Below are positions 36,501 to 42,500 of a DNA stretch of 64,000 nucleotides, piece after piece. A model generated the notes under the pieces. The model saw only the letters and a list, made by a program, of their open reading frames with translations. It was not told the origin of the DNA and ran no database searches. Position numbers and translations under genes: made by a program. Source of the DNA: Hormiphora californensis. Lineage: Eukaryota > Animalia > Ctenophora. The first letter of the stretch is position 1. Each line of letters starts with the position of its first letter. The DNA lies in the NCBI GenBank assembly GCA_020137815.1, contig CM035358.1:6758001-6822000 (forward strand), in the 5' to 3' direction.

Positions 36501-39500
36501 ACCCATCTGAGCGCACTGTGAGAATCAAATGGGGTATGGCGCCGCCATACAGAGAAAAACTTACTTCCATATTTCTGGGAAGAGCCCAGAACAAAACAGT
36601 TACAAAGAACAAGAAGCTGCAGCAGCGACATATTGTATTTCATCTGATATGGTTTAGGGTCCGGGGGTAGGAGATTTTACACCCGCCAAGTCAGATCTAA
36701 ATATGTGCACGTCAGGGAATTACAACAACACAGTGTAACATATATAATCAGAGTTGGATCAATGGATCATGCTGCAGGGACGGCGTAGGAATATATTTTC
36801 TCGGGACCCCTTGATCTTTCCTTAGTTCTATATTTATATCTCTCTTCTGTGTTTCTTGTTCCATGTTTCTTATTTTTATTATAGTTTCTCCCATCTTAAC
36901 TTCAGCCCCTAGATTTCATCAATAATCCAGTTACTATAGGTACCGCTGTACCGGAGCACCACAAAGCATTGTAAAATCTCATTCTTCCAATCTTCTTCTT
37001 CTTAGCCTAATTAAATATATGATATCCTGGACAGATCGTTCGTCATATATTATCACATATATTATTATCATTATGATAATTCAAGGATAATGTTTTAATT
37101 ATGCACTGAACTGCTGTAGACATCACCCACTCACTTCATACACACACAAACACCCACACACATGACCAAGCCTGTACGACAGGTTATTGATCACCGGCTG
37201 TATTACAGCACGAGAGAGCCGTCACTAGTATCGTGCAGAGATCCGAAGATCATGATAACAATTAATATGACGTGATCAACTGCTATAGCCCAACTGTTCA
37301 TTCTGAGAATTCTGATACAAAGATATTATTTGCCGTACTGATATATGAGGTAACTCCAACCCCCCAGTTTCATCTCCTTGTTTAACATGGGAGTTACCAA
37401 GGGAATCCACTGAGTTCGATTAATCTAGGCACATACCCACAGTACTATTCGAATTGGCGTATCTTTATATCAGGAATCTCGGATAGCAACAATCCTTGTG
37501 TTTTATTGCTATCTGAACAGATTAGGCGTATAGACAGGGCTCTTATTATCAGCAGTGCTCACGTTTCAAGGATAATGTTTTAATTATGCACTGAACTGCT
37601 GTAGACATCACCCACTCACTTCATACACACACAAACACCCACACACATGACCAAGCCTGTACGACAGGTTATTGATCACCGGCTGTATTACAGCACGAGA
37701 GAGCCGTCACTAGTATCGTGCAGAGATCCGAAGATCATGATAACAATTAATATGACGTGATCAACTGCTATAGCTCAACTGTTCATTCTGAGAATTCTGA
37801 TACAAAGATATTATTTGCCGTACTGATATATGAGGTAACTCCAACCCCCCAGTTTCATCTCCTTGTTTAACATGGGAGTTACCAAGGGAATCCACTGGGT
37901 TCGATTAATCTAGGCACATACCCACAGTACTATTCGAATTGGCGTATCTTTATATCAGGAATCTCGGATAGCAACAATCCTTGTGTTTTTTTATTGCTAT
38001 CTGAACAGATTAGGCGTATAGACAGGGCTCTTATTATCAGCAGTGCTCACGTTTCAAGGATAATGTTTTTAATTATGCACTGAACTGCTGTAGACATCAC
38101 CCACTCACTTCATACACACACAAACACCCACACACATGACCAAGCCTGTACGACAGGTTATTGATCACCGGCTGTATTACAGCACGAGAGAGAGCCGTCA
38201 CTAGTATCGTGCAGTGATCCGAAGATCATGATAACAATTAATATGACGTGATCAACTGCTATAGCTCAACTGTTCATTCTGAGAATTCTGATACAAAGAT
38301 ATTATTTGCCGTACTGATATATGAGGTAACTCCAACCCCCCAGTTTCATCTCCTTGTTTAACATGGGAGTTACCAAGGGAATCCACTGAGTTCGATTAAT
38401 CTAGGCACATACCCACAGTACTATTCGAATTGGCGTATCTTTATATCAGGAATCTCGGATAGCAACAATCCTTGTGTTTTATTGCTATCTGAACAGATTA
38501 GGCGTATAGACAGGGCTCTTATTATCAGCAGTGCTCACGTTTCAAGGATAATGTTTTAATTATGCACTGAACTGCTGTAGACATCACCCACTCACTTCAT
38601 ACACACACAAACACCCACACACATGACCAAGCCTGTACGACAGGTTATTGATCACCGGCTGTATTACAGCACGAGAGAGCCGTCACTAGTATCGTGCAGA
38701 GATCCGAAGATCATGATAACAATTAATATGACGTGATCAACTGCTATAGCCCAACTGTTCATTCTGAGAATTCTGATACAAAGATATTATTTGCCGTACT
38801 GATATATGAGGTAACTCCAACCCCCCAGTTTCATCTCCTTGTTTAACATGGGAGTTACCAAGGGAATCCACTGAGTTCGATTAATCTAGGCACATACCCA
38901 CAGTACTATTCGAATTGGCGTATCTTTATATCAGGAATCTCGGATAGCAACAATCCTTGTGTTTTATTGCTATCTGAACAGATTAGGCGTATAGACAGGG
39001 CTCTTATTATCAGCAGTGCTCACGTTTCAAGGATAATGTTTTAATTATGCACTGAACTGCTGTAGACATCACCCACTCACTTCATACACACACAAACACC
39101 CACACACATGACCAAGCCTGTACGACAGGTTATTGATCACCGGCTGTATTACAGCACGAGAGAGCCGTCACTAGTATCGTGCAGAGATCCGAAGATCATG
39201 ATAACAATTAATATGACGTGATCAACTGCTATAGCCCAACTGTTCATTCTGAGAATTCTGATACAAAGATATTATTTGCCGTACTGATATATGAGGGTAA
39301 CTCCAACCCCCCAGTTTCATCTCCTTGTTTAACATGGGAGTTACCAAGGGAATCCACTGAGTTCGATTAATCTAGGCACATACCCACAGTACTATTCGAA
39401 TTGGCGTATCTTTATATCAGGAATCTCGGATAGCAACAATCCTTGTGTTTTATTGCTATCTGAACAGATTAGGCGTATAGACAGGGCTCTTATTATCAGC

Positions 39501-42500
39501 AGTGCTCACGTTTCAAGGATAATGTTTTAATTATGCACTGAACTGCTGTAGACATCACCCACTCACTTCATACACACACAAACACCCACACACATGACCA
39601 AGCCTGTACGACAGGTTATTGATCACCGGCTGTATTACAGCACGAGAGAGCCGTCACTAGTATCGTGCAGAGATCCGAAGATCATGATAACAATTAATAT
39701 GACGTGATCAACTGCTATAGCCCAACTGTTCATTCTGAGAATTCTGATACAAAGATATTATTTGCCGTACTGATATATGAGGTAACTCCAACCCCCCAGT
39801 TTCATCTCCTTGTTTAACATGGGAGTTACCAAGGGAATCCACTGAGTTCGATTAATCTAGGCACATACCCACAGTACTATTCGAATTGGCGTATCTTTAT
39901 ATCAGGAATCTCGGATAGCAAACAATCCTTGTGTTTTATTGCTATCTGAACAGATTAGGCGTATAGACAGGGCTCTTATTATCAGCAGTGCTCACGTTTC
40001 AAGGATAATGTTTTAATTATGCACTGAACTGCTGTAGACATCACCCACTCACTTCATACACACACAAACACCCACACACATGACCAAGCCTGTACGACAG
40101 GTTATTGATCACCGGCTGTATTACAGCACGAGAGAGCCGTCACTAGTATCGTGCAGAGATCCGAAGATCATGATAACAATTAATATGACGTGATCAACTG
40201 CTATAGCCCAACTGTTCATTCTGAGAATTCTGATACAAAGATATTATTTGCCGTACTGATATATGAGGTAAACTCCAACCCCCCAGTTTCATCTCCTTGT
40301 TTAACATGGGAGTTACCAAGGGAATCCACTGAGTTCGATTAATCTAGGCACATACCCACAGTACTATTCGAATTGGCGTATCTTTATATCAGGAATCTCG
40401 GATAGCAACAATCCTAGATTAATCGAACTCAGTGGATTCCCTTGGTAACTCCCATGTTAAACAAGGAGATGAAACTGGGGGGTTGGAGTTACCTCATATA
40501 TCAGTACGGCAAATAATATCTTTGTATCAGAATTCTCAGAATGAACAGTTGGGCTATAGCAGTTGATCACGTCATATTAATTATTATGATAATTGTTGTA
40601 ATAATATCCAACTGCTTTTCAGCTCTCCGCGACCCTGGATAAATGCACAAAAGAGTTAACCGAAGCTCAGGCGGAGATTGAGGGTAAAAATCTGGCACTT
40701 CAGGAGTTGAACCAGCAAAGGAAACTTCTCGAAAATAAGGTACTTTTTTCCACTACTTGTTCCCACTTTTTAGTTGTTTGAAATCTGACGAATAATCGTG
40801 AACGAAAAAACCTTTGCATTGCCACTGTGCACTGTGCAGTGGTCCACCTCAACTTCGAGACCAATCCAATTAAGATATGTACCAATTAACAGACCAATTA
40901 AGATACCAATTAACAGACTGCAATTGTTCCAGGGTGAACACCTTAAGGGAGAGTTGACAACGGTTTGGGGTTGGGGAGATCAGTGGAGATTAAGGAAACC
41001 ATTATGGTAAATTAGGAGATATGTCATTTTGGGGAAGGGATAGAAAACCATTATCAGGTAAATTGGGGGCCCCCCCGCCTAAAGAGGAGAGGGTTTTGTG
41101 GGGGTGGGGTTAGGTAGATGGTGGGATGGGAAAAGGGGGTTTGTAGGGGTTAGGGACATAACCACCTATCAGGCGGGGAACCAAACCCGAATCGGGAAAA
41201 TTGGTCCTGTTTGGGTTTGAAACCCAGTCATGCCCTAAAAAAAAGATTTTTTGTTTGGGGTTTTTTATTGTTTCGGTCGGTTCCTGCAAAAGGGTAGGAG
41301 ATGGTGTATTGAATTGGGGGGGGGGGGGTTTTGGTGTAGGAGATGCCCAGATGGTACCTGAACTTGTTGTGGGTGATATTGTTATGATCAAGCTGTCCGG
41401 GGGGGTTTACAAGTGTGCAGGGGGGGCCCCCCAAAACCCCTTTTTTTACGAAACCCCCCAGTTTTTTTTTTTTTTTTCCCCTTATTGTTAAGGGGGTAAA
41501 AACCAAAAATTTCTTCTGTGGTTTTTATGCAGGTCTTAATCGTGAGTGGTGGCGACAAGCAAGCAGTGCTAGACCTCCAAGAAACGGTCCTTTTATTTTT
41601 TTTGTGCTTGACAGCTAAAATAATTTGTTTTTATATGGAAGGGGGAGAGGGGGGAGAGGGAAAAGAAGAAGAGAGACGAGAGAAAGGGGGGGCCGGGGAA
41701 GGGGAGGGGAGGAAAAGGAGAAGCCCAGCAGCAAGGGGAGAGAAAACGAGGGGCCCGGGCCAGGAAAAGAAGGGAAAGGCCCGGGGAAAAGCGAGAGAAA
41801 AACGGAGAAAAAAGGGGAAGATTTTGGGGAAACCTCCCCAAAACGAAGGGGCAAAGAGAGGAGGTAACCACCCCGAAGGGGGCCCGGGCCCCCGAATTTT
41901 TTGCAAGGAAGGGGCCCCAAACCCCCCCAAAGAGGGTGCAAAAGGGGAAAGGACATTGGAAAAAAGAAAAGGGTCCCGGTGGACGGGAAAAAAGGTGGAA
42001 GACCCCCCCGGGGAGAGAGAAGACCGGAGGAAGGAGGGGGGAAGGGAGGAAGAGGAGGAGAGGGGACGGGGGGAGAGGGAGGAGGGAAGAGAGAGAGAAG
42101 AGAGGAGAGGAGGGTGGAGGAGGAGAGAGAGGGAGGGATTGTCAGCGCCATTTACACGGAAAGCGACGACATCCTTTTTTTGCGAGAGGACGAGGGGACG
42201 GGAAATTTAAAAATGCAAAAATTTAAAAATTTAAGAACCGCGGCTTTTGAGGGCTTTTTCCCAAAATTTTTCCCGCCCTAATTAACCCGGTTTGCAACGC
42301 CCGCATTTCCCCGGCCAGGCAACAAAAAACCCCCCCTCTATTTTTCCTCTCCCCTTTTCCCCCTGCCCTTCCCCCCCTTCCTTTCCCCTCCCAAAAACTG
42401 TGGTTTTTTGCGGGGGGGTTTGGCATAAAATGACCTTTTTTCCCTCCTTTTTTTTAACCCCCCCCCCCTCCCCCTTCCCTTCTCCTTTCCTTCCCCTTCC

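Follow-up and report, generated by a model that had tools for sequence, protein, structure and literature searches.

A recent insertion of a 485-bp tandem repeat in a ctenophore intron, likely made by a Penelope-type enzyme copying a folded RNA

A tandem array of a 485-bp repeat in Hormiphora californensis is, on balance, likely to be a recent insertion made by a Penelope-type (PLE) enzyme that copied a folded minus-strand RNA. It lies in a 64,000-nucleotide stretch (the window; contig CM035358.1, positions 6,758,001 to 6,822,000), to which the coordinates below refer. The parts of this account differ in strength: a two-sided retro-insertion is highly probable and a PLE is the probable mobiliser, while a circular template is a little less likely than not. 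The element is best read as a non-autonomous Penelope-type retroelement, retrozyme-like and MRC1-like, that lacks a known ribozyme.

The array has a period of 485, 6.9 copies and 99% matches, and the unit has a GC content of ~42%. The near-identical head-to-tail units reported in an earlier note made from the sequence are thus confirmed, though units 2–3 carry a second haplotype. The array ends in an inverted arm of 170 bp, the reverse complement of unit positions 181–351, and the CCT/AGG common to this arm and the end of unit 7 is the microhomology that the note had described. Identical 12-mers flank the whole insertion, as claimed; because the final TT of the left one is compatible with the unit as well, the target-site duplication (TSD) has a true length of 10–12 bp. 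A third occurrence of this AT-rich 12-mer in the window, at 9022, stands in unrelated sequence. The insertion was found to have neither a poly(A) nor a simple tail. The duplication and the PLE-like tandem-plus-inverted architecture support a single insertion event, as the note had proposed. A DNA transposon was dropped by eye, the element ends not being inverted repeats of each other.

Table 1 Features of the insertion and its surroundings (window coordinates).
Feature	Position	Strand	Remarks
Left target-site duplication	37070..37081	.	first 11 bases form an interrupted palindrome
Long arm, 6.9 head-to-tail 485-bp units, starting at unit position 1–3	37080..40415	-	plus strand, putative cDNA; minus strand, putative RNA; polarity from geometry
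GAUC-UUCG-GAUC hairpin	37240..37251 (unit 1; in every unit)	-	family-majority allele gives a fifth pair
Predicted long branched arm, unit 1	37280..37537	-	unit positions 201–253 x 379–458; pair probabilities mostly >0.9, both strands
Best candidate functional core	37436..37503	.	37436–37446 (11 nt) identical and 37460–37503 ~87% alike in divergent relative
Second-haplotype minimal tract across units 2–3	37775..38266	.	two family-majority alleles, rare allele at both ends, three small insertions
CCT/AGG microhomology between arms	40413..40415	.
Short inverted arm, unit positions 181–351	40413..40582	+	haplotype is that of units 1 and 4–7
Right target-site duplication	40583..40594	.
Likely host exon, AG/GT-bounded, coiled-coil-like peptide	40623..40739	+	structure read by eye

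The element sits within an intron of a ctenophore gene, with host exons on both sides; the next exon starts 28 nt past the insertion, and the long arm is antisense to the host transcript. A neighbouring protein is 88% identical to a Pleurobrachia bachei protein. In sequencing run X1 the depth is 0 at 37040–37075, the left junction being unbridged by the listed contigs, and one contig from run X3 departs from the window sequence at 37065; these two observations weigh neither for nor against the junction or an empty allele. To the right of ~40950 the assembly is of raw-read quality. The unit count may therefore be off, and the unbridged junction and the raw-read quality nearby would fit an assembly artefact, either a collapsed repeat or a read fold-back. 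However, the different unique flanks, the TSD, the host exons on both sides and a locus-specific minority haplotype, which majority polishing would have erased, make an artefact very improbable.

Reading from either target end towards the interior gives the plus strand of the unit in both arms. Because the arms agree in this way, we infer that the template RNA was the minus strand and that it was primed from both cut DNA ends, at unit positions 1–3 and 180–181; the two ends of this insertion are 178 nt apart. L1-type twin priming yields the same two-arm geometry. The target duplication contains an 11-bp interrupted palindrome, and palindromic 5-bp arms like those of the target occur in 121 of the 60,449 11-mers outside the array and in 12 of the 1,346 AT-rich ones. 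A resemblance of the target to the unit, as in self-targeting, was not significant: 57 and 80 of 1,000 shuffles, and 18 and 34 of 500 AT-matched pieces, scored no worse. Relative to the end of the long arm, the inversion resumes ~65 nt upstream, as it would after a fold-back, and an abundant tandem DNA template exists. Both points agree with a DNA-only origin, in which a staggered break took up an extrachromosomal circle or a rolling-circle product of a satellite and one end was extended by fold-back synthesis. We regard this as improbable, given that the palindromic site carries a clean 10–12 bp duplication and has lost no sequence, that alleles favour folding and that an end recurs, as described below.

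The tract of second haplotype in units 2–3 spans about one monomer, so copying of a single circle does not by itself account for the array. The array holds six copies of a minority haplotype, and the rare allele recurs exactly one unit apart, which together suggest repeated copying of single molecules. Of the proposal that the array is rolling-circle cDNA of one circular RNA, the retro-type insertion stands and the pure single-molecule copy does not.

The 485-bp repeat family is young, very abundant and non-coding in the ctenophore genome. The unit is present in 20 of the 24 listed runs, from 12 studies. We compared the contigs of eight of the 24, leaving out X19 and X20 (small share), X6 and X8 (RNA by guess, share >0.8) and others. 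Contig depth in X1 is 26,000–51,000 on the unit versus ~7 on the flank, and in X3 250,000–660,000 versus 74–393; in these two host samples the unit exceeds the flank in summed depth by roughly a thousand-fold. This depth, together with the opposite-strand joints of X1 (two) and X16 (one) and a loose inverted end in X15, bears out the expectation of further copies besides this locus. The abundance also weakens the picture of a rare captured circle. Contig joints of this kind may be chimeras formed in the library. A junction in X18 lies at unit position 180, within 1 nt of the right end of this insertion (181), and the recurrence of a start at 180/181 is given by this single other junction, from an RNA library. 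A 514-nt contig in X7 returns after 485 nt and so holds a tandem back-joint in DNA, and a divergent relative is present in three runs (X7, X10 and X17); divergent subfamilies that are 90% alike or less also exist. Homologues were sought in viral contigs and in phages and plasmids (no match), in metagenome contigs (three of three matches at chance) and in genome contigs (sole match a lone 20-mer). Nothing similar to the unit was found elsewhere in the window.

RNA evidence for the unit is a trace only. Six partial RNA contigs, at depth 2–7, came from four runs (the four that were compared, of six holders recorded as RNA), and no unit words were found in RNA runs X21 and X22, whose shared sample has the unit in its DNA. 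The circular RNA that the earlier note had envisaged did not appear: among these contigs, with no host total-RNA run listed, none spans the unit or its back-junction. Scarce RNA, high copy number and the DNA back-joint in X7 are also what we would expect if a satellite-like tandem family had given a read-through multimer that a LINE retro-copied by twin priming, with no circle and no special RNA function. The heterogeneous tract would fit a linear template from a mixed array, and the window contains a LINE that looks intact and has both an endonuclease and an RT domain. Yet the 3' end of this LINE shows no similarity to the unit, the insertion is tailless, the internal end recurs, and the allele pattern and folding score suggest selection on folding. 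We therefore find this explanation unlikely, though it deserves consideration. Neither an autonomous PLE partner nor a 3'-end similarity to one was found within the window.

The claim that the unit folds better than shuffled sequence holds, moderately: against 60 shuffles per strand, the circular monomer gave z scores of −3.7 (plus) and −3.9 (minus). The fold is branched, with 59–66% of the unit paired, and its excess stability comes from long interrupted, long-range arms. The stems named in the earlier note are all present, including the minus-strand UUCG hairpin, but the count of perfect stems of ≥7 bp does not exceed chance: there are 9, versus a mean of 6.4 and a maximum of 12 in 30 shuffles. 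A CGGCT/AGCCG pseudoknot (37195–37235) is at chance level, since 16 of 150 shuffles gave one of equal size. The multibranch at 37160–37260, favoured there as the best candidate for a functional motif, shows no local stability peak, with z from −2.8 to +2.2 in 100-nt windows; a better position for the candidate core is the segment given in Table 1, the sole part shared with the divergent relative. Each of the three alleles common in the family makes the minus-strand fold more stable, by 1.6–3.0 kcal/mol; of 221 random changes, 15% reach −1. This allele pattern, with the z score, suggests selection on folding. The fold of the plus strand comes close in significance, and it gains more than the minus-strand fold from two of these alleles.

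No ribozyme was found by Rfam in the window or a unit dimer, at the gathering threshold or at E up to 10, the only match being a weak one to a trypanosome snoRNA (E 3.2). The type I hammerhead word CUGANGA is absent from both strands, and the best near-misses have at least two core changes and poor stems. One near-miss, on the minus strand, has a perfect 6-bp stem I beside CUGAUAA; it was rejected, its C3–G8 pair being broken and no proper GAAA with stem II present. A search for an HDV-like core, a nested double pseudoknot with P3/L3 and J4/2, gave no candidates on the plus strand and two P1 starts on the minus strand, both with non-canonical L3; no canonical L3 word was found. Twister, twister-sister, pistol, hatchet and hairpin ribozymes had no Rfam match, and their core words gave scattered partial matches only. 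Rfam and descriptors thus agree with the earlier note that no canonical hammerhead, twister, pistol or HDV core is present, and they did not reveal the divergent or new self-cleaving motif that it had thought possible. ARAGORN found no tRNA head in the unit, a ctenophore spliced leader (as in PMC8527503) was not seen in it by eye, and telomerase RNA was dropped by eye for want of a telomere template.

These results bear on whether the unit is a true retrozyme analogue, a 485-nt circle with an undescribed or heavily permuted known self-cleaving or self-ligating RNA. Seamless units, the minority-haplotype copies with a rare allele one unit apart, a size, GC content and long TSD that resemble those of non-LTR retrozymes, the minus-strand UUCG loop and the short block conserved in the divergent relative would all suit it. 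With no Rfam match, CUGANGA, HDV-like core or local stability peak, no RNA circle in the contigs, and hammerhead-free PLEs that amplify well without a ribozyme, we think it rather unlikely. It is compatible and overlaps with mobilisation by a PLE. In its fullest form, which we offer as a speculation of similarly low probability, a retrozyme analogue of ctenophores would have the minus-strand 485-nt RNA as its circular intermediate, and this RNA would cleave and recircularise itself by a ribozyme of a new class, most likely around 37436–37503, and be copied from two fixed starts by a hammerhead-free PLE. An endogenised infectious viroid-like circular RNA would match the size, the lack of a coding frame and the better-than-shuffled folding of both strands; it is very hard to reconcile with a branched, partly paired fold, no ribozyme on either strand, abundant DNA with shared alleles in two host samples and viral contigs without a match, and we give it next to no weight.

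Under the preferred reading, a PLE insertion, tandem copies would first give a minus-strand transcript. A PLE protein, probably dimeric, would then nick both strands of the AT-rich palindromic target ~11 bp apart, and from both 3' ends reverse transcription would begin at internal sites of the RNA, at unit positions 1–3 and 180–181, the second a recurrent start. For the long arm, the enzyme may have run on through seamless repeats, either around a circular monomer or along a multimeric transcript; the second haplotype would come from a single switch or from conversion afterwards. The two cDNAs would finally be joined via the 3-nt microhomology and repaired. Processing of the RNA would not depend on a ribozyme, in line with Naiad/Chlamys elements and MRC1, unless some unrecognised motif takes part. 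The protein of the Anolis Poseidon PLE (PAc), a predicted dimer, cleaves both strands of AT-rich DNA at ATT and extends both of them; it begins at internal sites of the RNA that do not resemble the target, and it has no need of hammerhead cleavage in vitro (PMC11167929). Naiad/Chlamys elements form tandem plus inverted copies and head-to-tail non-autonomous copies, lack canonical hammerheads and include ctenophores among their hosts (PMC8557442). Counting against a PLE, the described starts lie 30–40 nt apart (PMC11167929), versus 178 nt here.

Structured tandem retroelements without a hammerhead are invisible to retrozyme surveys, because these start from the hammerhead motif; a 2026 preprint, for instance, filters tandem repeats by it (10.64898/2026.07.22.740005). 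A young, abundant ctenophore family of this shape would show that PLE-driven multimer insertion needs no known ribozyme. It bears on whether hammerheads are passengers or needed, and on whether such repeats hide new self-cleaving RNAs, and the insertion would be an in vivo record of priming on both strands of a palindromic target. If RNA or cleavage were absent, the repeat would be an ordinary non-autonomous element or satellite.

Among known systems, L1 twin-priming inversions have a TSD, two opposite cDNA arms and inversion microhomology, all as here; they differ in that this insertion has no poly(A) tail and a tandem, non-coding template. Viroid-like RNAs are RNA-only replicons with a rod-like fold and ribozymes on both strands, whereas this unit is abundant in DNA, incompletely paired and free of recognised ribozymes. 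With PAc the insertion shares the cutting and extension of both strands at AT-rich sites and internal, non-homologous RT starts, seen in vitro for PAc and deduced here (PMC11167929). PAc differs in coding for a protein, in having a hammerhead and in its start within an AC-rich RNA stem-loop (PMC11167929); the unit is non-coding, no hammerhead was found in it, and the comparable low-complexity stretch of its putative RNA strand is rich in GU.

Non-autonomous Chlamys/Naiad derivatives (MRC1) share the head-to-tail multicopy insertions, the inverted truncated copy, an AT-rich target, of which one site is seen here, and the lack of a canonical hammerhead (PMC8557442). In that study they are described for green algae, not animals; they resemble the 3' end of an autonomous PLE in their own genome and have fixed ends with a 30–40 bp tail, where this insertion has ends 178 nt apart, one of them recurrent, and a clear TSD. 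Naiads themselves occur in the ctenophores Beroe and Mnemiopsis (PMC8557442). Metazoan non-LTR retrozymes are defined by a type I hammerhead in each unit, which is lacking here, and are quoted at 150–450 bp, shorter than this unit, and the searched passages of PMC7229834 and PMC7761336 make no mention of ctenophores. Another of their hallmarks is an abundant circular RNA of monomer length, for which the contigs of the four RNA runs compared gave no back-junction. As portrayed in PMC7229834 and 10.64898/2026.07.22.740005, they nonetheless share with our element small, non-coding, low-GC (<50%) tandem units in many copies, a TSD of >4 bp, a predicted self-paired fold and a proposed mobilisation by PLEs.

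The insertion is real, recent and two-armed, and consists of an abundant, structured ctenophore repeat. Tandem Repeats Finder recovered one array at 37080–40415, with a period of 485, 99% matches and 6.9 copies, a count to be taken with caution because the sequence to the right of about 40950 looks unpolished. The target 12-mer at 37070–37081 is present again at 40583–40594. The inverted arm, at 40413–40582, repeats unit positions 181–351 in reverse complement and has CCT/AGG in common with the end of unit 7. The coordinates and anatomy reported in the earlier note (array, 12-bp duplication, inverted arm and CCT joint) are therefore right. 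In a frame scan, no frame of at least 150 codons overlapped the array. By eye, a long coiled-coil gene carries the array in one of its introns, and a likely exon (40623–40739) begins 28 nt past the insertion. A neighbouring transporter-family protein, 88% identical to one of Pleurobrachia bachei, places the host among the ctenophores, close to that species. The stretch 40950–42500 is homopolymer-rich and garbled, resembling unpolished long-read sequence, and the frames within it are artefacts.

Other genes and repeats in the window
Feature	Position	Strand	Description
MFS transporter gene, intronless, nested	7124–8686	minus	88% to a Pleurobrachia bachei protein, next match only 24%
LINE, intact-looking	13566–17191		233-aa frame, then 1013-aa frame encoding endonuclease and RT domains
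18-bp satellite fold-back	17294–18484		two opposed arrays of ~590 bp each, immediately following the LINE
Inverted repeat, MITE-like	30969–31544		279 bp, 94% complementary, 18-nt spacer
Likely nested gene, same intron as the array	34461–36267	minus	pair of related domains plus a Thr/Glu repeat; Pfam gave no convincing family
Homogeneous tandem array	45583–46428		105 bp × 8
Homogeneous tandem array	48657–49250		34 bp × 17.5
Homogeneous tandem array	62380–63175		176 bp × 4.5

Read inward from either target end, both arms present the plus strand of the unit. If both target 3′ ends primed synthesis, the plus strand would be the cDNA and the minus strand the RNA, with which the minus-strand location of the UUCG tetraloop agrees. 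The first 11 bases of the target duplication form an interrupted palindrome, which suits a symmetric cut; beyond the array, such a palindrome is present in 121 of 60,449 11-mers (AT-rich 11-mers: 12 of 1346). We also considered a resemblance between target and unit; the similarity was not significant. In PMC11167929, the Penelope-like element (PLE) protein PAc, of Anolis Poseidon, is described as cutting AT-rich DNA on both strands, with both extended, and as starting internally on its own RNA; a dimer is predicted.

Apart from three single homopolymer insertions, no difference separates units 1, 4, 5, 6 and 7 from one another or from the inverted arm, and their alleles are the minority in the family (the A at 37239 reaches ~4% in X1 and 20% in X3, two DNA samples of the host organism, X1 possibly being the source itself). 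The tract 37775–38266 belongs to a second haplotype, which has both majority alleles and three small insertions; a rare allele lies at both ends of the tract, one unit apart. The tract contradicts the view that the array copies one circle, since seven rounds on one circle cannot yield it. The mixture can be explained by a switch between two circles, by transcription of a mixed array into multimers, or by later gene conversion. The seamless repetition of the minority haplotype points to one molecule having been copied repeatedly somewhere in the lineage.

The unit or part of it occurs in 20 of the 24 listed sequencing runs (12 studies), 14 of which hold at least half of its words; contigs from eight of the 24 were compared with it. 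Summed contig depth, which is not copy number, was 26,000–51,000 on the unit versus ~7 on the flank in X1, and 250,000–660,000 versus 74–393 in X3, which shows that the family is very abundant. It is also young, because 3033 of the 5302 X1 contigs compared (flank repeat counted in) are at least 99% alike. A 514-nt contig of X7, a metagenome of marine DNA, shows the unit closing on itself, as tandem DNA would. Opposite-strand joints (two in X1, one in X16) and an inverted loose end in X15 were found, and may include library chimeras. A foreign flank in X18 joins at unit position 180, versus 181 at the right end of this insertion. In X7, X10 and X17, a divergent relative has just 37460–37503 and the 11-nt block 37436–37446 in common with the unit; this sister family measures 396 nt or more, its depth in the same DNA samples is close to the unit's, and it is the best source for covariation data. 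Another very abundant short repeat ends at 36500–36553, with a depth matching that of the unit in both X1 and X3.

Folded as a circle, the monomer is more stable than all 60 shuffles on either strand, as the earlier note had proposed to check: −116.6 kcal/mol on the plus strand (z −3.7, 59% paired) and −147.7 kcal/mol on the minus strand (z −3.9, 66% paired). The second haplotype gave z −3.5, with none of 100 shuffles as low. Of ten control stretches, nine ranged from z −2.4 to +2.9; the remaining one is a long inverted repeat. The excess stability is a long-range effect: z fell no lower than −2.8 in any 100-nt window, short perfect stems in the unit are at chance level, and so is the pseudoknot previously suggested. 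Each of the three common alleles makes the minus-strand fold more stable, by 1.6, 3.0 and 2.9 kcal/mol respectively; among 221 random changes, 15% do so by at least 1 kcal/mol. For the same alleles the plus-strand values are −5.2, −5.5 and −0.2 kcal/mol. The rare allele destabilises the fold of both strands. These modelled energies suggest that folding is under selection; they leave the strand unfixed and are not covariation.

Rfam gave no match at gathering scores, and nothing up to an E-value of 10 save one weak snoRNA match. The motif CUGANGA is absent from both strands, a relaxed hammerhead search produced no acceptable candidate, and no HDV-like core was found in the unit, all of which upholds the initial impression that no canonical hammerhead or HDV core is present. 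For other ribozyme classes, a search with core words returned nothing coherent. Six partial RNA contigs of depth 2–7 came from four RNA runs (contigs only; mixed marine samples, several of poly(A) type). Two of them match over only 38–44 nt, none of the six from these mixed samples spans the unit or a back-junction, and two RNA runs from the X7 sample contained no unit words. We consider it unlikely that the unit hides both a new self-cleaving RNA and a true circle, and lean towards a PLE-mobilised insertion of a repeat that has no known ribozyme.

A search of titles and abstracts, a scope outside which lie most subscription journals and Repbase, returned no prior description of the unit family. 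Metazoan non-LTR retrozymes, as portrayed in PMC7229834, PMC7761336 and 10.64898/2026.07.22.740005, have a similar layout. The hammerhead is their defining feature, however, and the unit fails the hammerhead test and so is not classed with them. PMC8557442 describes Naiad/Chlamys insertions with tandem copies and an inverted truncated copy, lacking canonical hammerheads, in hosts that include ctenophores, together with non-autonomous head-to-tail forms such as MRC1. The array matches these in its tandem-plus-inverted layout, absence of a hammerhead and ctenophore host. It thus fits the hammerhead-free PLE derivatives, with a putative kinship to an autonomous partner.
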